From: a virus
Virus record (IMG/VR): IMGVR_UViG_3300044712_000982
Span: 21,373-85,372 of that record
Strand: one strand, 5' to 3'
Length of the DNA stretch: 64,000 bases
Positions within the stretch are counted from its first letter, which is position 1, and each line of letters starts with the position of its first letter. The notes beneath the pieces are model-generated. The model was not told the origin of the DNA, did no database searches, and saw only the letters and a program-made list of their open reading frames with translations. A program made the position numbers and the translations under genes. Positions 7,000 to 64,000 of the stretch are shown here, piece by piece.

Positions 7000-7899
7000 A
7001 TGGCACGAACGGAAGCGCCGCAGGACCTGAGGCCGTACGTCCGGGTCATGACGGACCTGCCGCTTCACCCCAAACTGGCGCCCCTCGACAACCCGGCCGC
7101 CGGATGGACCTACGTCGTCTCGCTCTGCTACTGCGGCCAGAGCCTCACCGACGGGCACTTCCCCGTCGCCGCCGTGTTACGTCTGGCCGGCACCGACAAG
7201 GACGTGGCGGAGGCACTTGTCGAGCAGGGACTATGGCACTTGCCAGGACACGACTGCGAAGAATGCGACCAGCCGCGCTCCGGGCAGGCCGTCGTGCACG
7301 ACTACCTCAAACACCAGCGGTCATCGGCCGAAGCGCGCGACCTGAGCGAAAAGCGCCGAGAGGCAGGTCGACGCGGGGCAAAGGCCCGATGGGGATCACG
7401 ATCCGACGATGCCGACATGGCAAATGCTATGGCAAATGCCATGCCAAGTGCTGAGCAAGTGCCATGGCAAAACGATGGCAACGTGATGGCAGAGGAGAGT
7501 AGAGGAGAGAAGAAGAGAGAAGAGAAGAACAAGAAGACTTCGTCTTCTTCTCGTCGGAGAACCGACGAGCCTCCTCGACCAGACGTCGACCGACTCTGCG
7601 CACATCTCGTCGACAAGATCGTCAGCAACGGCTCTCGGCGTCCGACCATCACGAAGGCATGGCGGGATGCCGCCCGACTCATGCTCGACCGCGACGGCCG
7701 CACCGTCGAGCAGGTGATCAAAGCCATCGACTGGTGCCAGCGTGACGAGTTTTGGCGCGTCAACATCCTGTCGATGCCGACCCTGCGCGAAAAGTACGAC
7801 CGACTCCGACTCTCGGCGCAGCGCTCAGCCACCAACCAACCGTACGAAAACCCTCAAAACGAAGACGATTACGACGCGTGGAAAGGACCAAAGCCGTGA
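7000..7899 (+). CDS. phage replication initiator (lambda O/DnaD-like organisation)
   Basis: N-terminal HPKL...DGHFP, VHDYLKHQ; C-terminal AIDWCQRDEFWRVNILSMPTLREKYDRL; internal repeats; sits upstream of loader and helicase. Confidence 0.75.
   Translation: MARTEAPQDLRPYVRVMTDLPLHPKLAPLDNPAAGWTYVVSLCYCGQSLTDGHFPVAAVLRLAGTDKDVAEALVEQGLWHLPGHDCEECDQPRSGQAVVHDYLKHQRSSAEARDLSEKRREAGRRGAKARWGSRSDDADMANAMANAMPSAEQVPWQNDGNVMAEESRGEKKREEKNKKTSSSSRRRTDEPPRPDVDRLCAHLVDKIVSNGSRRPTITKAWRDAARLMLDRDGRTVEQVIKAIDWCQRDEFWRVNILSMPTLREKYDRLRLSAQRSATNQPYENPQNEDDYDAWKGPKP
7417..7537. repeat. putative replication origin: iterons plus purine tract inside the initiator gene
   Basis: ATGGCA(A) five times plus one ATGCCAA, followed by an A/G tract of about 45 nt. 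Confidence 0.55.
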
Positions 7900-42922: not shown

Positions 42923-43162
42923 ATGGCGGTAGGGGATCGGGAGTTTGGGGCGCTGCTGGAGCGCGTAGACGGGCTGGCGGAGGCGCTGCACGAGGCGCTG
43001 CCGGCGTTGCAACGGCGGGACACGTGCCAGTTGACGTGCGGCGCGCTGGAGCGGCGCGTGGCGGCACTTGAGGGGCGTCCGGTGCGGTTGTGGCCGCTAC
43101 TGATCGGCGCGGCCGGGGTACTGGTGGCGATCGCTGCGCTGGTCGTGTCGCTGGCCAAGTAG
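42923..43162 (+). CDS. lysis-cassette membrane protein (coiled coil plus TM)
   Basis: LERRVAALE then WPLLIGAAGVLVAIAALVVSL. Confidence 0.6.
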   Translation: MAVGDREFGALLERVDGLAEALHEALPALQRRDTCQLTCGALERRVAALEGRPVRLWPLLIGAAGVLVAIAALVVSLAK

Positions 43163-57644: not shown

Positions 57645-58000
57645 TTCTGGTCCTCCTGCGTGGTGGTTTCGCTGGCCTTGACGGCCTCGCCGATGCCGTC
57701 GCGGATCCAGCCGGGCACGCTGTCGGCGTATCGGCCGGTGCGGTAGGCGGTAATGTGGATTTGGTTGTCGGCGTCGGACCACCAGACCTTGGTGACGACT
57801 CCGAGGATGTCGCGGGCGCGGGCGTTGCTGATCGACTCGCCGTCGAGGGTGGCGCCGCAGATGTTGCCGGTGTTGTAGCGGGAGACTTCGAGGCCGATGA
57901 GTTCGGGCCAGCTGTTGAAGTAGACGCGGACCTCGCCGGTGCTGGGGTGGGTCCAGGCGTTGCCGCCGATGCGGATCATCTGGTCTTTGGTGTAGGTCAT
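57641..58000 (-). CDS. hypothetical phage protein
   Basis: GEVRVYFN, YNTGNICGATLDGESISN, KVWW. Confidence 0.6.
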   Translation of the reverse strand: MTYTKDQMIRIGGNAWTHPSTGEVRVYFNSWPELIGLEVSRYNTGNICGATLDGESISNARARDILGVVTKVWWSDADNQIHITAYRTGRYADSVPGWIRDGIGEAVKASETTTQEDQK

Positions 58001-58022
58001 CGCCCTGGTCCTCTCGCTCGCT

Positions 58023-58065
58023 TCTGTAGACCACTCTACACGACACATGTTGAGTGGTCTACAGA
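58023..58065. promoter_or_regulatory. 14-bp perfect inverted repeat overlapping a minus-strand promoter
   Basis: TCTGTAGACCACTC-15 nt-GAGTGGTCTACAGA. Confidence 0.65.
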
Positions 58066-58078
58066 ACCCACGAACGAG

Positions 58079-58621
58079 TCAACCCACCAGCGCCAGCACA
58101 GACACCACCCCAGCCGCCACCAACACCGGGCGCACCAGCCACAACTCAACCCGACACCCCCGCCGCCCGGTCTTGAACCGCAATGGCACCCACACCCCGA
58201 CCGGCCGGCGACACCACGGCCCGAACAGCGGTGCACCAGCGTCTGTTAGGCAATCTCCGAGCACGTGGACAACATGCCCAGCACCGACCGCCAGGCCCAC
58301 CCACCACAGCGAAGGCTCGACCAGCGCCGCCAGCGCGCCCACCGCGAGCCCGAGCATCACGCCGACGATCCCCCAATGCGTCGGCCCGCGATGCCCGCAC
58401 CCGAGCCGGACCCCGGCCGACACGAGCCGCGACACCCACCCCAGCGACCGCGACGCCATCGACTGCGGATGGTCGAGGTCAGGCAGAAGCGCGCCAACCC
58501 CGCACAGCACGGCACCAGCGACCGTGGGGACCAGTCCGGGCGCGTGACCCACCTGCGCTAGCCCGGCGCACCCGGCCGTCCACACCACGGCGCCGGAAAG
58601 TCGGTGCGTTACGCCCATCAT
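58079..58621 (-). CDS. membrane-bound metal-dependent hydrolase (YdjM-like)
   Basis: THRLSG, GALLPDLDHP, HRGPTH, HVLGDCLT..G.PLF. Confidence 0.85.
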   Translation of the reverse strand: MMGVTHRLSGAVVWTAGCAGLAQVGHAPGLVPTVAGAVLCGVGALLPDLDHPQSMASRSLGWVSRLVSAGVRLGCGHRGPTHWGIVGVMLGLAVGALAALVEPSLWWVGLAVGAGHVVHVLGDCLTDAGAPLFGPWCRRPVGVWVPLRFKTGRRGCRVELWLVRPVLVAAGVVSVLALVG

Positions 58622-58757
58622 CGCAACGCACCTGCGACGAGCGCGGCGCCGACCATCAGGCCGATGGCGGAGGGCCACCACGCGGCGACCCGCAGCCACA
58701 GCGCCGGCCGGGGCACGATGGCGATGACCTCTGCGGTCACGACGGGTACGAGTTGGC

Positions 58758-60653
58758 TCACGACGTCACCTGCCAGGGGGTTCCGCTGCCGCTTGGCTGC
58801 CTGATGTCTCCGGACTCGCGCAGCTCGGCGAGTACGGCACGGAGTTGCGCAGGCCTGACCGGGCAGTCGGGCCGATCGAGGAGGGCATTCGCTGTCTGCG
58901 GTGAGATCCGTAGCCGTGCGCGAATCCACTCCTTTGTCGAGGTGGGTTTCTGCGGCGGCGGGCTCGGGTGGACCCCGAATGCGGAGAGCCGGTCGGCGAC
59001 AGCGGCGGCTGCGCTTCCGAACGTTTCGCGAGGCGCGTCCGCTGCCGCTCGCCGCTGTTGCCCGCTGGTCGAGGGTTGCTCGGCTTGCTCGGGCTGGTCG
59101 ACGATCCACCTGATGGGGCGGCGGACGTGCCGCGCGGAGGCTGCGGCTTCGTCGAGGAACGGGACGCGTCCGAGCATGCCGATCCGTTCGGCTGCGCGGG
59201 AGTAGCCGCTTCCGGCGGTCTTCAGTTTCTTGCCGCCGATCTCGATCTCGATGGGGATGGAGAATGGGTCGCCGATGAAGTCGTCGGGGAGCACGGTGGT
59301 GCCACTGCCGCGGTTGGACAGTCGGAGGATGAGGGCGTTTCCGGCGACGGCGGCGTCACGGATCCGGATTGATCCGCCGAGTGATTTCATTTGCGGGAGT
59401 TGGGTGGCGAGGATGACGGAGACGCCGGTTTTGCGGCAGATCGCCATGATCTCTTCGAGCATCTCGACGATCTGACGGTCTTCGCTGGACATCGTGAGCA
59501 CCAGGTGGCATTCGTCGATGATGACGGCGAGTTGCCTGATCCCGAGCGCAATGATTTTCGGGTCCGCCTGGTCGTAGGCGTCGATACCTTCAGCCGCCAG
59601 CCGGGACGATCGTTCCATAACCTCGGCGTGGAGCCTGCGGATTAGGTCTTTCGTCGCCGTGACCCCGTTGTGGTATTCGCCGGCAGTGTCCCGCCATTTC
59701 GGCAGTGACTGGCCGTTTTGCGGGTCGCAGACGACGACCATCACACCGGCGTGGAGGAGGTTGTCGATGATGACGCCGAGTGCGCGGCTCTTCCCGGCGT
59801 TCGACGAGCCGACGATGAGCCCGTTGAGGGTTCCAGATCCTTCCTGCTGGTGGATCCAGGTGCACGGGGTGCCGTCGGCGTAGGTGATGATCTGGAAGCG
59901 TCCGTCGCGGTAGGTCGGGCCGGGGTAGCGAACGGGCAGTTGGATGTATGAGCGCTCGACGATGACGAGCTGGAGTTTCGCGGCGCGTCCGGTGCGTCGC
60001 CAACCAACTGAGCCTTCGGGGAGGTCGAGGCAGGTTTCGACGGCGGAGCCGGTCTTGACGACCTCCCCGATTTTCGTTCCTGGCAGGAGCCGGATTGTGG
60101 CTTCGATGACACCGGCGCGGACGGTCTTCGCCACGGTGAGCAGCGTATTTTTGCAGACCCCATGGCCGATGACTTCGGTGCGCCACCTCTGCACCCATTC
60201 GTCCGTCCGGTCGACCTCCGGCTCGGGGTCGGGCTCGACCACGTCACGTAGGTGACGCCACCACGGCCAGCCCAGGAGCGGGGTGACGATCGCCAGGATC
60301 GGAATTGAGGGGCCGTGGGTGAGCGGATCGGCCAGCAGCGCCCACAGTCCGAGCGTCCCGGTGATCACGGCTCGGTAGCAGCGAATCCATCCCGAGTGGG
60401 TGCGCCACCCGGCGGCGATGAGCACGGCGACCGCCACGGTGCCCCACTCCCACCAGCCGGACAGGTCGAGCCACCCGGAGGCGACGGCGGCGAGCCACGC
60501 TGTGGCGGCCCAGTACGCCGGCAGCATGCGCCGCCACGTGTGCTTGAGGATCCAGCCAGCCGCGATCAGCACCGCGGCGCCTGCCGTCGCGGATCCGGTG
60601 ACTGCCGCCCCGGCTGCCCGCTGTTTGATTCCTGCCGTCGCCATTTTGTTCAC
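58758..60653 (-). CDS. traB: FtsK/SpoIIIE-family TraB-like DNA translocase
   Basis: N-terminal TM helices, GSSNAGKS, VIIDECH, RKTGVSVILATQ, C-terminal winged-helix-like tail. Confidence 0.8.
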   Translation of the reverse strand: MNKMATAGIKQRAAGAAVTGSATAGAAVLIAAGWILKHTWRRMLPAYWAATAWLAAVASGWLDLSGWWEWGTVAVAVLIAAGWRTHSGWIRCYRAVITGTLGLWALLADPLTHGPSIPILAIVTPLLGWPWWRHLRDVVEPDPEPEVDRTDEWVQRWRTEVIGHGVCKNTLLTVAKTVRAGVIEATIRLLPGTKIGEVVKTGSAVETCLDLPEGSVGWRRTGRAAKLQLVIVERSYIQLPVRYPGPTYRDGRFQIITYADGTPCTWIHQQEGSGTLNGLIVGSSNAGKSRALGVIIDNLLHAGVMVVVCDPQNGQSLPKWRDTAGEYHNGVTATKDLIRRLHAEVMERSSRLAAEGIDAYDQADPKIIALGIRQLAVIIDECHLVLTMSSEDRQIVEMLEEIMAICRKTGVSVILATQLPQMKSLGGSIRIRDAAVAGNALILRLSNRGSGTTVLPDDFIGDPFSIPIEIEIGGKKLKTAGSGYSRAAERIGMLGRVPFLDEAAASARHVRRPIRWIVDQPEQAEQPSTSGQQRRAAADAPRETFGSAAAAVADRLSAFGVHPSPPPQKPTSTKEWIRARLRISPQTANALLDRPDCPVRPAQLRAVLAELRESGDIRQPSGSGTPWQVTS

Positions 60654-60704
60654 CTATCTGTGCGGCGGGGGGCGACCGGCGTGGTCGCCCCCCGCGTCGC
60701 GTGG

Positions 60705-61118
60705 TCAGCCTTCGAGGACTTCCCGGTCGGCGAGGTTCCCGGCGGCGTCGGCCGCGTCCGCCACCGCCCCGTCGCGGGCGTTGAAGTCGCTGGTGGCGGC
60801 GGTGAACGACTCGGTTGCCGCCTGCAACTTGGCTTCGGCGGACCGGGCTGATTCGGCGGCGGCGTGGTAGTCGGCGGCTGCTGACCGTGCCTGCGTGGCC
60901 GCGTCGCGGAGGTGCTCGACGGTCGAGGCGGCCATCTTCGCTGACTCGTAGTTGTCGGCGGCCTGCTCGAAGGTCGCGGCGGCGGCCTCGGCGGCCTCGG
61001 CGTTCTCTTCGAGCTGGGCGGCGGATGCGCCGGCGTTGGTGGCGGATTCCTCGGACCATTCGGCGCCTTGGGCGAATGCGGCGCGGATGGATTCGGGTCC
61101 TGCTGCCTCGGTGTTCAT
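60705..61118 (-). CDS. Ala-rich helical protein upstream of TraB (TraA-like position)
   Basis: Coiled-coil-like, 137 aa. Confidence 0.5.
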   Translation of the reverse strand: MNTEAAGPESIRAAFAQGAEWSEESATNAGASAAQLEENAEAAEAAAATFEQAADNYESAKMAASTVEHLRDAATQARSAAADYHAAAESARSAEAKLQAATESFTAATSDFNARDGAVADAADAAGNLADREVLEG

Positions 61119-61717
61119 GCTCCACTACCTTCGTTGATCTTGGGTGGTACGGATTCCAGTTCCGGGATGGGTCTCAGCTGCTGCGGACTGCCGCTCCGCG
61201 CGGGCCTCTTCGTCCTTCGGGCCGGCGACGGACGGCGCGTCGGCTCGGGCATCGTGTCTGGGTCTTCGTCGGTGTCGGTGTGGTGGATGTCGGTGTGTTG
61301 CTTCGACGCGTCGTCGGCGTTGCGTTTGAGCTGGTATGGACGGGATCGCCAGTCGCACAGGTCGCAGTTGCCGTACCAGTGCTTTGCCTGCCGGTCGTAT
61401 TCGATGGCGACGGGGCCTCGCGTGCGGCGTTCGCGGTAGATGGCGCGGCGCTCCTCTCGGCGTTGGCGGCGCTGCTCCCACCGTTCGGGGCGGCGTTCGC
61501 GGGCGGCGTCAGAGGCGTCCTCGATCAGGTCGGCGAAGTACTTGCCGATCGCCGACCTGGTGCGCTTCGGCTCCCTGCCGGCAGCCCGGTCGACGCGCTC
61601 GCGCTTTTCGCGTTCCTGCCTGCGCGGCGATGTCTTCCCGCGGGCTGCGGCGACGACGTCCTCGAAGATCAGGGCGATGACCTTCAGTGTGATGAGTACG
61701 AGTACGACGTCGACCAT
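61115..61717 (-). CDS. hypothetical membrane-anchored basic protein
   Basis: N-terminal TM, Arg-rich, CDLC. Confidence 0.5.
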   Translation of the reverse strand: MVDVVLVLITLKVIALIFEDVVAAARGKTSPRRQEREKRERVDRAAGREPKRTRSAIGKYFADLIEDASDAARERRPERWEQRRQRREERRAIYRERRTRGPVAIEYDRQAKHWYGNCDLCDWRSRPYQLKRNADDASKQHTDIHHTDTDEDPDTMPEPTRRPSPARRTKRPARSGSPQQLRPIPELESVPPKINEGSGA

Positions 61718-61719
61718 GG

Positions 61720-62100
61720 CTACCTCCTCTTGTTGCTGGCCTTGACGGCCCGCTCATTGATCGTGTGCGCGACGACAAGGCACACGGCTGCGATGGTCAT
61801 CGTTGAGGTGGTGGCGAGCCCGTAGCCGACTTGCTCGCCGACGAAGTCCCACAGGTCCGAGAAGCGCGACTGGATCCAGTCGGAGATCGGGCCGGGGATG
61901 TAGACGAGCAGGGTCGGCATGACGAGGGCGCCGACGATGGCGTCCTGGTTTGGGGTCTTGTCCTTGGCGATGTCGACGACGGCCTTCACGAGCAGGCCGA
62001 TCGTGAAGACGATGAGGACCATGGTGGTGGCGTCTGCGGCGAGGCCAGTCCCGGCCACGATCGCGAGGATGAACGCGCACCACGCGAACAGTTTCATCAT
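61720..62100 (-). CDS. multi-TM Spd-like membrane protein
   Basis: Three to four hydrophobic helices in the transfer module. Confidence 0.55.
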   Translation of the reverse strand: MMKLFAWCAFILAIVAGTGLAADATTMVLIVFTIGLLVKAVVDIAKDKTPNQDAIVGALVMPTLLVYIPGPISDWIQSRFSDLWDFVGEQVGYGLATTSTMTIAAVCLVVAHTINERAVKASNKRR

Positions 62101-62126
62101 GGTAGATCTCCTTTCCGGGAGTGGTG

Positions 62127-62504
62127 TCAGGCCGTCAGGTAGGTGATGATCAGCGCGACGCTCACGGCGAGCGTGCGGAGCGGATGGGTGAGGATCCACG
62201 AGACGAGGTGGAGCATCGCCCGTGGGATGAGCGCGAGGGCTGCCCAGGCGGTCAGCCAGATCTCCACCGCGGTCGCGTTGCCGTCGCGGATGGTGGTGGC
62301 GTCGGTGACGAGCTTGCAGAGCGGGTCCGGGCTGTCGGTCCAGACGGAGCGGATCGATGCGAGGTCGTCGACTGTGGCGCCGTAGACGTCACGGACAGTG
62401 ATTCTGGTACTGGAATCCGAACCAGAATCCGGCGTGCTGGTTTGTGCTGGTTTGGGATGATTCTGATCTGGGCGCGGATACGGAGAAGGGCGCCTACGGG
62501 CCAT
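62127..62504 (-). CDS. membrane protein of the transfer module
   Basis: GAGG RBS; W..WAAL..HLVSWILTHPLR TM end. Confidence 0.55.
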   Translation of the reverse strand: MARRRPSPYPRPDQNHPKPAQTSTPDSGSDSSTRITVRDVYGATVDDLASIRSVWTDSPDPLCKLVTDATTIRDGNATAVEIWLTAWAALALIPRAMLHLVSWILTHPLRTLAVSVALIITYLTA

Positions 62505-62601
62505 AGAAATGACCTCGGCCCCACCCGGACTGGAATCCACCCGGCCATGTGACTGTCCGTAGTCATCGTCACGTGCTGGCTGCGCACCCATCACTCCCAC
62601 C

Positions 62602-62724
62602 TCATCCCGTCACGTACGCCACGATCGCTACGACGACCAGCACGAAACCGCACGTGACGATCACGGTTGCGATCGCGCGCAGCGGGTTCGATCCGTACTG
62701 GTGCGTCCCGTTGTGCTGGTCCAT
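62602..62724 (-). CDS. 40-aa TM peptide (not in the ORF track)
   Basis: MDQHNGTHQYGSNPLRAIATVIVTCGFVLVVVAIVAYVTG. Confidence 0.45.
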   Translation of the reverse strand: MDQHNGTHQYGSNPLRAIATVIVTCGFVLVVVAIVAYVTG

Positions 62725-62855
62725 CACGTCGACCCGCCGATCAGCAGCCCGCACGCGAGACCAGCGACGATCGCGACGGTCACGGCGAGGGCGAGGATCG
62801 GGCTACGGGGAACCGACGCGAACGTCTCGCCAAGCACCCGACGTGCGTAGATCAT
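62724..62855 (-). CDS. 43-aa TM peptide
   Basis: GGAG RBS; ILALAVTVAIVAGLACGLLI. Confidence 0.45.
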   Translation of the reverse strand: MIYARRVLGETFASVPRSPILALAVTVAIVAGLACGLLIGGST

Positions 62856-62869
62856 GACGTTTCTCCTGG

Positions 62870-63307
62870 TCAGTGGCTTGTGAGGTGCCTGCGCCGGTTG
62901 CGCATGGCCGAGGCGATTCGGCGGCACGTCCATGTGATGGCCGGGTGCGCGATGGTCGCGAGTGCGGCACCGGCCGTGACTGCCGCGAGTTGCCCCGACC
63001 CGAGGTGCCATCCGTGGACGCCAACGACGTACCAGCCGATACCGCAGGTCACGGCCGCGATGGTCGCCGCGGATGGGGCATCGGCCCACGCGTCGGCGAG
63101 CCTGGAACGGATGGGGTGGGCTGCGCGCTGCGGGTCGGGCCACGGATCGCCGGTCTTCCATGCGTAGAGGGCGTCGTCGACCTCGTCCATTGCCTCGGAG
63201 AGCAGGCTCCGGAGGTGGTCGACGGTCGCTTCGTCGATGTGCTCGTTGGCGGCAATCGCGGTGTCGACGGCGATGATGGCGTCGAGTGCGCTGGTTGGGT
63301 CGTTCAT
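62870..63307 (-). CDS. protein with two C-terminal TM helices
   Basis: GGGAG RBS; MNDPTSALDAII start. Confidence 0.5.
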   Translation of the reverse strand: MNDPTSALDAIIAVDTAIAANEHIDEATVDHLRSLLSEAMDEVDDALYAWKTGDPWPDPQRAAHPIRSRLADAWADAPSAATIAAVTCGIGWYVVGVHGWHLGSGQLAAVTAGAALATIAHPAITWTCRRIASAMRNRRRHLTSH

Positions 63308-63542
63308 GACGTTGCTCCCTGCGTGAGCCGGTCGAGTGCGTCCGCCACCTCGGTGACGGTGGTTGCTGCCGCGTCTGCGGCGTCCATGGCGGTTGCCGTA
63401 GTCGCCGTTGCGGGCGGCTCGGAACGTGTGGTGCATGGTCGTGGATGCGCCGCGGAGTTCCTCGGCGAGCGCGCGGATCGCGGCCACTTCGGCGGGGGTC
63501 ATGACCAGTACCTGCCGTATGCGAGCACGAGTTCGACGATGG

Positions 63543-64000
63543 TCATCGGGTCTCCTCAGGCTGGGCGGCTTCTGCAATTGCGCGGTCGATGAGGTCTTGC
63601 ACCGCTGGGTAGCCGATACCGACGCCGTTGCGGGCGTTGCGGATGGCGTCGTAGACGGCGCGTTGTCCGGGTGCGTTGCGGCCTTTGTTGCGGGCGGTTG
63701 CAACGAGTGGCCGGACGATGTTCATGAGGTCGTCGTCGCCGGTTGCAACTGGATCTGCAACGTGGTCGACGGCTGGTGTTGCAACGGGCTCGGCCGGGCT
63801 GGCTGTAGGCGCCTCTGTGGGTGTTGCAACTGGCCCTGGGCGCGGCGTTGCAACTGTCGCGGCTGGTGCCGTTGCGGGCTTCCGTTGCGGTCGCCGGCGG
63901 CTCTTCGTCCGGGTGGCCTTTCGGCTGGTGGGGCGTGTTGCAGCCGGTGTTGCAACCAGTTCGGCGGCGGGTGTTGCAACGGCCGGGGCGACGTCTGCAA
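63543..64000 (-). CDS. Spd-like protein C terminus (VAT repeats plus terminal HTH), 5' truncated
   Basis: Frame from 63998 is open: repeated VATP, then PGQRAVYDAIR..GIGYPAVQDLI. Confidence 0.6.
   Translation of the reverse strand, partial: ADVAPAVATPAAELVATPAATRPTSRKATRTKSRRRPQRKPATAPAATVATPRPGPVATPTEAPTASPAEPVATPAVDHVADPVATGDDDLMNIVRPLVATARNKGRNAPGQRAVYDAIRNARNGVGIGYPAVQDLIDRAIAEAAQPEETR
63697..63980. repeat. seven copies of the 8-bp palindrome GTTGCAAC
   Basis: Starts at 63697, 63742, 63778, 63823, 63847, 63949, 63973, plus near-copies. Confidence 0.9.

Follow-up and report, generated by a model that had tools for sequence, protein, structure and literature searches.

The closest described counterparts of the locus considered here are the clt, SpdA/sps, and SpdB systems of plasmids. 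At clt loci, the DNA translocase TraB binds clustered direct repeats (PMC4447253); among the published repeats are G(C/A)AAC in pIJ101, CCGCACA(C/G)(C/G) in pJV1, and TGACACC in pWTY27 (PMC3583192). SpdB2 of pSVH1 is an integral membrane protein near TraB that is reported to interact with TraB and is needed for mycelial spread (PMC4447253), and it is reported, as cited there, to bind double-stranded DNA (dsDNA) (reference 22 of PMC4447253). SpdA2 of pIJ101 binds a palindrome, CGTCACGTGACG, that is repeated inside its own gene, and recoding of these sps sites in pIJ101 altered the stability of the plasmid but not its transfer (PMC4170104). Here we describe an array of another short word, GTTGCAAC, in the 3' part of a phage gene (the array gene) that encodes a predicted membrane protein of 422 residues, P0001. 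The window analyzed is a stretch of 64,000 nucleotides, bases 21373-85372 of one 106,285-bp contig filed as a virus record (IMG/VR IMGVR_UViG_3300044712_000982). The array gene occupies genome positions 84915-86183, and its 3' part, stop codon included, lies at window positions 63543-64000 on the minus strand. The open reading frame itself runs from genome position 86183 down to 84918, that is, from 811 nt past the end of the window to window position 63546, with a GC content of 0.77 at third codon positions. The arrangement of the array, its codon usage, and its recurrence in relatives lead us to propose that the word provides docking sites for the product of the very gene in which it is written.

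Seven exact copies of GTTGCAAC are present in the 3' part of the gene, as a sequence-only reading of this DNA had reported for positions 63697-63980. Read on the minus strand, the copy at 63697-63704 encodes V370-A-T372 in the first helix of the C-terminal tail of P0001, and that at 63742-63749 encodes V355-A-T357. The remaining five fall in a predicted disordered linker. The copy at 63778-63785 encodes V343-A-T345, with a CTGCAAC variant 24 bp before it; the copies at 63823-63830 (V328-A-T330) and 63847-63854 (V320-A-T322) form a pair with 24-bp spacing, as do those at 63949-63956 (V286-A-T288) and 63973-63980 (V278-A-T280). Only one further copy is found in the window, at 43006. Dinucleotide shuffles of the 64 kb give an expectation of 0.77 copies, and none of 100 shuffles reached eight. 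A count over the whole 106,285-bp genome, which the sequence-only reading had named as a check, gives nine copies, seven of them in the array.

The array proved to be larger than the seven octamers that had been noticed, and it extends past the end of the window. Allowing one mismatch, there are 14 sites over genome positions 85069-85604, including four copies of ATTGCAAC on the coding strand; the genome as a whole has 37 such sites, 14 of them in the array gene. With about 10 copies of CCGCAAC besides, 21 GTTGCRR sites (YYGCAAC on the coding strand) lie on the plus strand between genome positions 84779 and 85613, against a density of 0.46 per kb elsewhere. The part inside the window spans 63407-64000 and contains, in addition to the perfect octamers, GTTGCAGC at 63937 and sites of the GTTGCGG type at 63407, 63627, 63636, 63675, 63687, 63871, and 63884. 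The continuation reaches 241 nt past the window end, to genome position 85613, and adds four copies of GTTGCAAT and further variants. In total, the array comprises about two dozen copies of GTTGCAAC and close variants within ∼830 bp. A spacing of 24 bp recurs in four site pairs, and three weakly similar 44-nt units each contain two sites 24 bp apart. Overall, the sites show no helical phasing (Rayleigh R of 0.06 at 10.5 bp). Tandem Repeats Finder detected no tandem repeats in the linker array, and the Pro codons that flank the octamers vary (CCC, CCG, or CCA) around an invariant octamer, which argues that the copies are not recent duplicates. The GC content at the array is ∼0.67 with no AT-rich unwinding stretch, and there is no extremum or turn of the GC skew at the array.

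All seven octamers encode Val-Ala-Thr (VAT) as GTT GCA ACn on the minus coding strand. The sequence-only reading had pointed to this invariance and to the rarity of the codons, and both observations hold: in the phage, GTT accounts for 12% of Val codons, GCA for 13% of Ala codons, and ACA for 10% of Thr codons. Val-Ala is coded GTTGCA in 12 of 14 cases within residues 194-413 of the array gene, as compared with 4 of 258 cases in 80 other phage genes; none of the seven other VAT tripeptides in those 80 genes is coded GTTGCAAC. Likewise, Val-Ala and Ile-Ala pairs are written as xTT GCA in 17 of 19 instances from residue 194 on but in none of the four before residue 194. As a null model, the same protein was rewritten with the codon usage of the phage. 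The coding strand of the array gene contains 24 copies of GCAAC, against 4.95 ± 2.0 expected under this synonymous recoding, and 14 sites within one mismatch of GTTGCAAC, against 1.97 expected. The GCAAC excess is found in each of the three frames: 14 copies read GCA AC (Ala-Thr; 2.3 expected, P < 1e-4), 6 read CGC AAC (Arg-Asn, frame C GCA AC; 1.7 expected, P = 2e-4), and 4 read G CAA C (Gln; 0.9 expected, P = 9e-3). A core that exceeds the recoding expectation in all three frames shows that selection acts on the DNA, which bears out the earlier suggestion of conservation at the DNA level. Copies also occur within conserved helical parts of the protein, at positions where homologues have Ile-Ala. 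The excess of VAT is private to P0001, which has 7 VAT and 4 Ile-Ala-Thr (IAT), as compared with 2 VAT and 1 IAT in its closest homologue, the 62%-identical P0002.

The perfect copies are palindromic, a feature that the sequence-only reading had singled out as unusual for a TraB recognition repeat. This is correct for the perfect copies but not for the array as a whole, about half of whose copies keep the GCAAC half only. Non-palindromic GCAAC is found 17 times on the coding strand, against 4.8 expected, and the opposite half-site 4 times, against 2.1 expected; all four of the latter are GTTGCA(G/A), for which 0.15 would be expected. The idea of a strictly directional array is weakened by the finding that coding bias alone predicts a ratio of ∼2:1 between the half-sites. 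From these counts we read the site as a palindromic 8-mer accompanied by many half-sites rather than as a strictly directional word.

The structural model of P0001 is of low to moderate confidence (mean predicted local distance difference test score (pLDDT) of 58). It predicts four long N-terminal helices (residues 30-155), which are also predicted to be membrane-embedded, a helical middle part (168-268), the disordered linker (263-353), and a three-helix bundle at the C terminus. This C-terminal tail (residues 350-422; 63546-63764, minus strand), with predicted helices at 354-375, 383-394, and 401-415, is the proposed reader of the word. Searches of P0001 against Pfam, NCBIfam, and the PDB returned no family at meaningful thresholds, and the DUF2637 profile (PF10935) matched neither P0001 nor anything else encoded by the phage at E values up to 10. 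The nearest ESM Atlas clusters (scores of 0.90-0.93) carry DUF2637, SpdB_N, and HTH_SpdB_C, which we take as a lead only. The description of the gene as Spd-like in the sequence-only reading holds for its build and for its place in a TraB module. A predicted membrane protein with a C-terminal helical part, encoded in the same gene string as TraB, has an SpdB-type build and location, whereas the expected profile match is absent. No match to P0001 was found by tblastn among phages or among 72,556 plasmids, and scans of IMG/VR with P0001 and with an alignment of the tail gave no close relatives.

We propose, as a reading somewhat better supported than its denial, that P0001 itself docks at the sites of the array. 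The protein would be anchored in the cell membrane by its four N-terminal helices and would carry at its end a small three-helix, helix-turn-helix (HTH)-like tail. GTTGCAAC would be recognized by this tail, with a dimer probably occupying the palindrome, and the half-like YYGCAAC copies would be bound more weakly. The sites are written into the protein's own coding sequence, mostly where it specifies the linker, in which almost any residue may be tolerated, and newly made protein would thereby find its sites on the same DNA molecule from which it was expressed. Phage DNA would in this way be tethered to the membrane, close to the TraB pump and to the small Spd-like membrane proteins encoded in the same gene string, and docking might serve the movement or positioning of DNA in a mycelial host. 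DNA binding by the tail, recognition of this word in particular, and an influence of binding on transfer or spread are what we infer from sequence. We arrive at this proposal because it accommodates the selection at the DNA level, the fitting build of the protein, the recurrence of such arrays in relatives, the covariation of word and tail (below), and the precedent of SpdA2 and sps.

Relatives of the locus were approached through the TraB module. Of 301 Micromonosporaceae genomes sampled, 4 have a homologue of the phage TraB, as do 16 of 275 Micromonospora genomes; these homologues are 44-53% identical to the phage protein, and the contigs on which they lie measure about 14-190 kb. Beside the Micromonosporaceae TraB genes lie homologues of three small genes that separate the array gene from TraB in the phage (g137, g200, and g157), in the same order, and these served as markers for the position of the array gene. 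Of 17 such modules, 16 have their strongest local 7-mer array in a gene for a membrane-plus-HTH protein at the position of P0001, just upstream of the g157 homologue. The word differs between elements. Nine elements and L254 form class T1, with RGCGGAAAY, of which the nine have 113 copies at a density of 6.9 per kb within the gene and 0.6 outside it. Three elements form class T2, with GCGGAAGC (41/41 copies); L255 has CGTCCGGA(CG), L256 has CCGGTACC, and the phage has GTTGCAAC. In T1 and T2, Ala-Glu is written either GCC GAG or, within the word, GCG GAA, whereas Glu after other residues is GAG, indicating that the signal is at the DNA level in these classes as well. The palindrome CCGGTACC of L256 fills the linker of the membrane-HTH gene in the TraB module (L256:10196-10682), and on an unrelated metagenome contig the same word occupies the stretch immediately preceding a gene of the P0001 family (L245:549-932).

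The word varies with the tail of the array-bearing protein and not with TraB. The C-terminal 55 residues of TraB can be 93-100% identical between elements with different words: the TraB C termini of L280 and L285 are 100% identical, and those of L282 and L255 are 98% identical, yet the words differ within each pair. The pairs with near-identical TraB C termini include GGCGGAA versus GCGGAAGC and GGCGGAA versus CGTCCGGA. The ALLDRPDCPV region of TraB is kept from the phage to Micromonospora, whereas the words are unrelated. In contrast, the identity of array-protein tails does not exceed 51% between word classes and is at least 51% (mean 76%) within a class, and the tails of the RGCGGAAAY and GCGGAAGC classes differ in the putative recognition helix (SDRTIRKVLNAV versus SERTVRTVLSAV).

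Homologues of P0001 itself share its membrane and middle parts and differ in the linker and tail. The closest, P0002, is 67% identical in the tail. All come from Micromonosporaceae or soil metagenomes, and from this taxonomy we infer the host of the phage. Their neighbors include varied DNA-translocating ATPases: an FtsK with a gamma domain beside an integrase (L002), a HerA-like protein (L195), a T4 coupling protein (L003), and a TraB-like protein (L197). A minority of the loci have a strong word array of their own in the gene or just before it, often in all three frames. The words are GCGGACAG in L197 (13 copies), CCGGTAC(C) in L245 (13 copies), CGGAAGT in L198 and L202 (7 copies each), ACCGTCA in L199 and L200 (8 copies each), GCCGTCA in L195 (10 copies), and CAACCGG/CCGGTTG in L002 (17 of the 23 copies in a 16.8-kb locus). 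At a threshold of P < 1e-10, strong arrays were found in 8 of 134 homologue gene windows and in 5 of 623 control windows (Fisher P = 5e-4). The notion that arrays are a universal trait of the P0001 sequence family was rejected, a strong array being present in only ∼6% of homologue loci. Where arrays occur, L198 and L202 have a common tail and the common word CGGAAGT; L195, L199, and L200 have a common tail and the common core CCGTCA, despite differing linkers. A separate feature marks the largest tail class of chromosomal homologues, in which three GCTAGC motifs with 11-12-bp spacing lie ∼320 bp upstream of the start of the match. The triplet (e.g. L013:7659-7687) precedes a small upstream open reading frame and is found in about 30 of the 41 loci of the class; the 7-mer GCTAGCA occurs 65 times in the gene windows, against 0.2 expected from the flanks.

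Several observations weigh against the proposal that P0001 docks on its own gene. Less than 1 kb separates the array from the tail, and the two would be inherited together in a recombination block even without any interaction between them; because of this physical linkage, the covariation of word and tail is weaker evidence than it appears. Independent contrasts are few, with about three in which TraB is constant. The Micromonospora array genes are positional analogues, mostly without detectable homology to P0001, and most of the chromosomal sequence homologues of P0001 lack an array. The model of the tail has a pLDDT of only 50-62, and in sequence searches of Pfam, NCBIfam, and the PDB, the tail matched no known DNA-binding family.

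The word is also found in other viruses. In an 88-kb IMG/VR record with 69% GC and terminal repeats (L193), positions 7340-7445 contain three copies or near-copies of the 16-bp palindrome ACCCGTTGCAACGGGT and one CTGCAAC variant. These sites lie in the linker of a protein with a winged-helix-like N-terminal part and encode PVATG and PAATG repeats; on this evidence, L193 appears to be a second actinophage that writes GTTGCAAC into the linker of a DNA-binding protein. More than 100 unrelated viral contigs (L082-L194, 26-63% GC) have at least three copies of GTTGCAAC, mostly spaced by 21-23 bp, in a count made for GTTGCAAC alone, and some carry long arrays with a 27-bp period. A search for P0001 in the records with L193, L174, and L103 found nothing.

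The sequence-only reading had proposed in its headline that the array is a clt locus. In the strict form of this explanation, the C-terminal winged-helix domain of TraB would recognize the octamers, assemble there, and pump the phage DNA. The array is indeed a cluster of short repeats (5-9 bp) on an element that encodes a TraB-type translocase, as known clt loci are short-repeat clusters bound by TraB (PMC4447253). The TraB-type gene lies 3 kb along the same string, the non-palindromic copies are in excess on one strand, and the pIJ101 and pJV1 repeats given in PMC3583192 resemble the YYGCAAC core. That resemblance, however, amounts to five bases, and the best-described TraB-bound clt in the literature consulted, that of pWTY27, adjoins the tra gene, whereas the present array lies in another gene 3 kb away. 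In the relatives, where the comparison was made rather than in the phage itself, the word did not change with the C-terminal domain of TraB, whose near identity across homologous modules with different words, together with the conservation of the ALLDRPDCPV region, argues against TraB as the reader. We regard a strict clt locus as distinctly unlikely, and as the less likely of the two possibilities that had been put forward. The other, an array bound by an Spd protein, fits a word that appears to follow the tail of the array-bearing protein, and the broader suggestion of a cis-acting locus has held up, in that DNA-level selection makes the array a credible cis-acting protein-binding site. The word might instead be read by a further phage regulator encoded in the same exchangeable block, for example by one of the small upstream genes, or by a host factor, and the array would then be a site of partition, silencing, or titration. 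What the data give is a DNA-level site linked to the 3' part of the gene and not the identity of its reader, a weak HTH protein (g84) heads the operon, and arrays of GTTGCAAC occur also in unrelated phages such as L193 and the many viral contigs. Nevertheless, g84 more plausibly reads a single palindrome in its own promoter gap (below), and a host factor would leave the element-specific words unexplained. A ParB/parS-type centromere would have partner ParA and ParB genes on the element, and in the phage no match to ParA (AAA_31) was found and only one sub-threshold match to ParB_N (15.9 bits), ∼53 kb from the array. Such a further regulator or host factor as the reader is unlikely in our estimation.

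The origin of phage lambda lies inside gene O, in the part that encodes a linker, and the present array might similarly hold the initiator-binding repeats of a replication origin; the GTTGCAAC-centered palindromes of L193, within the linker region of a protein whose N-terminal part is a winged helix, have the same layout. The absence of helical phasing, the GC content of 0.67 with no AT-rich unwinding stretch, and the lack of a skew turn all argue against an origin at the array; moreover, P0001 is a predicted four-helix membrane protein in a transfer-type module rather than an initiator, and the DNA-metabolism genes of the phage are located elsewhere, so that we consider this very improbable. 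We attach equally little weight to a signal in RNA, which would act either through mRNA folding at the self-complementary GUUGCAAC copies or through rare codons that set the pace of translation by way of phage tRNAs. A 300-nt stretch of the mRNA does fold better than its shuffles (z = -3.0), and the phage has tRNAs that fit codons of the word, namely Ala(UGC), Thr(UGU), Gln(UUG), and Val(UAC). The z-score, however, follows by construction from seven self-complementary octamers, the CCGCAAC and ATTGCAAC copies contribute no pairing, a core present in three frames is not one codon pair, and the words of relatives, such as GCGGAAGC, are non-palindromic. A scan against Rfam gave no match except a spurious mir-138. 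Finally, the array could be a functionless by-product of peptide repeats or local duplication. The linkers of the family are repeat-prone, with 15-bp tandem repeats in L078, L058, and L257, and the 44-nt units of the array are weakly similar to one another. Against this, the linker array has no tandem repeat, the synonymous flanks vary around an invariant octamer, and copies are found in three frames and in conserved helical parts where homologues have Ile-Ala. The coding counts for VAT, the three-frame excess of GCAAC, the counts of the two half-sites, and the number of sites relative to recoding bring this explanation close to refutation.

The array gene lies early in a long leftward gene string that begins after a divergent promoter gap (genome ∼87,040-87,260) and continues through small genes to the TraB-type translocase. 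The first gene of the operon encodes g84, with its weak HTH match (HTH_23, E = 0.023). In the gap that heads the string with the array gene and TraB, ∼1.7 kb past the window end, is a single perfect 16-bp palindrome, TGTCTAGCGCTAGACA (genome 87114-87129; L001:11742-11757). It is likely an operator, and its reader is perhaps the adjacent g84. The small genes g157 (62127-62600), g200 (61115-61717), and g137 (60705-61118), all on the minus strand, lie between the array gene and TraB. The translocase gene (58758-60653, minus strand), 3 kb farther along the string than the array gene, encodes 631 residues, which comprise a membrane part at the N terminus, a P-loop ATPase, and the conserved C-terminal ALLDRPDCPV region. 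It matches NF041214 (E = 2e-14) and FtsK_SpoIIIE (E = 1e-4), both short of the curated cut-offs, and one homologue, P0051, is 84% identical. Searches with the TraB C terminus against Pfam, NCBIfam, and PDB sequences yielded nothing usable, IMG/VR scans with TraB and with a TraB alignment gave no close relatives, and megablast of window positions 58000-64000 against plasmids gave no match. Tyrosine- and serine-integrase families were looked for in the phage, and none was found.

Other features of the contig lie apart from the array. ARAGORN predicts 33 tRNA genes, with a tRNA block at genome 97.6-100.6 kb. Within it, at genome 98832-100323, are the tRNAs Ala(UGC), Thr(UGU), Gln(UUG), and Val(UAC); the codons GCA, ACA, and CAA that the word forces are minority codons. 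A further call, tRNA-Ala(GGC) at window 61431-61504, lies within the g200 frame and remote from the block, and it may be false. Between genes at genome 94620-94780 (L001:19248-19408), the inverted repeat ACCTGTCC(C/G)GGACAGGT is clustered as two complete 17-mers and several half-copies, which resemble a group of repressor operators. The contig ends (genome 1-115 and 106159-106285) consist of the tandem heptamer GCTCGGT in 16-17 copies each. The direct terminal repeat of the record is thus a microsatellite, and the completeness or circular closure deduced from it needs to be checked.

The proposal that P0001 docks on its own gene bears on how Spd proteins help TraB to move DNA through the mycelium. 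In the open-access literature, we found no description of word arrays inside SpdB-like genes or of a specific DNA target of SpdB-type proteins. If each SpdB-type protein reads a private word in its own gene, this would offer a simple and testable handle, and such words would explain the odd runs of rare codons in these genes. A wider and more doubtful possibility is that SpdB-like membrane proteins form a general self-docking system, in which a private word written many times into the protein's own gene would pin the DNA at the membrane next to a dsDNA pump, and that in this phage, for which searches found neither ParA nor a tyrosine- or serine-integrase family, the module passes phage genomes between hyphal compartments without virions. 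Were this so, a virus would be spreading through the mycelium as plasmids do. The presence of module and array in a phage suggests that phages of mycelial actinomycetes may borrow this plasmid mode of moving DNA from cell to cell. In genome annotation, arrays of this kind point to a cis-acting site that escapes gene callers and repeat finders.

Comparison with the known systems places the phage array between several of them. It resembles lambda ori in having candidate protein-binding repeats in the linker-coding part of a gene. Unlike the phage array, the lambda repeats are phased and adjoin an AT-rich region, and O is a soluble initiator. With the clt loci of pSVH1, pJV1, pIJ101, and pWTY27 it shares a cluster of short repeats, a TraB-type dsDNA pump on the same element, and a presumed action in cis; the known clt repeats, however, are direct, few (3-9), and bound by TraB, whereas the phage array is palindromic in its best copies and lies inside another gene. 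As with SpdB and SpdB2, a membrane protein is encoded in the neighborhood of TraB, and the ESM Atlas neighbors of P0001 carry the corresponding domains, but the Pfam DUF2637 model does not match P0001, and the element is a phage rather than a Streptomyces plasmid. A further parallel in arrangement is SpdA2/sps. In both cases, a short palindrome is repeated within a gene of the spread region and is seen as a recurring peptide (SRDD/E in pIJ101 and VAT in the phage). The pIJ101 site is bound by the product of its own gene, the phage counterpart being suggested by covariation, and synonymous recoding is the published test in pIJ101. By analogy, this precedent for a protein that binds a palindrome inside its own gene supports the proposed docking of P0001. 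The two are nevertheless set apart by site, size, and build. The sps site is the 12-bp CGTCACGTGACG, present in 1-3 copies and conserved across plasmids, whereas the phage word is an element-specific 8-mer in 14-24 copies; SpdA proteins are soluble, have 117-163 residues, and bind through a conserved N-terminal domain, whereas P0001 is a predicted membrane protein of 422 residues with a candidate C-terminal binding tail. A member of none of these systems by the tests run, the phage array appears from its sequence to combine features of clt, SpdA/sps, and SpdB.

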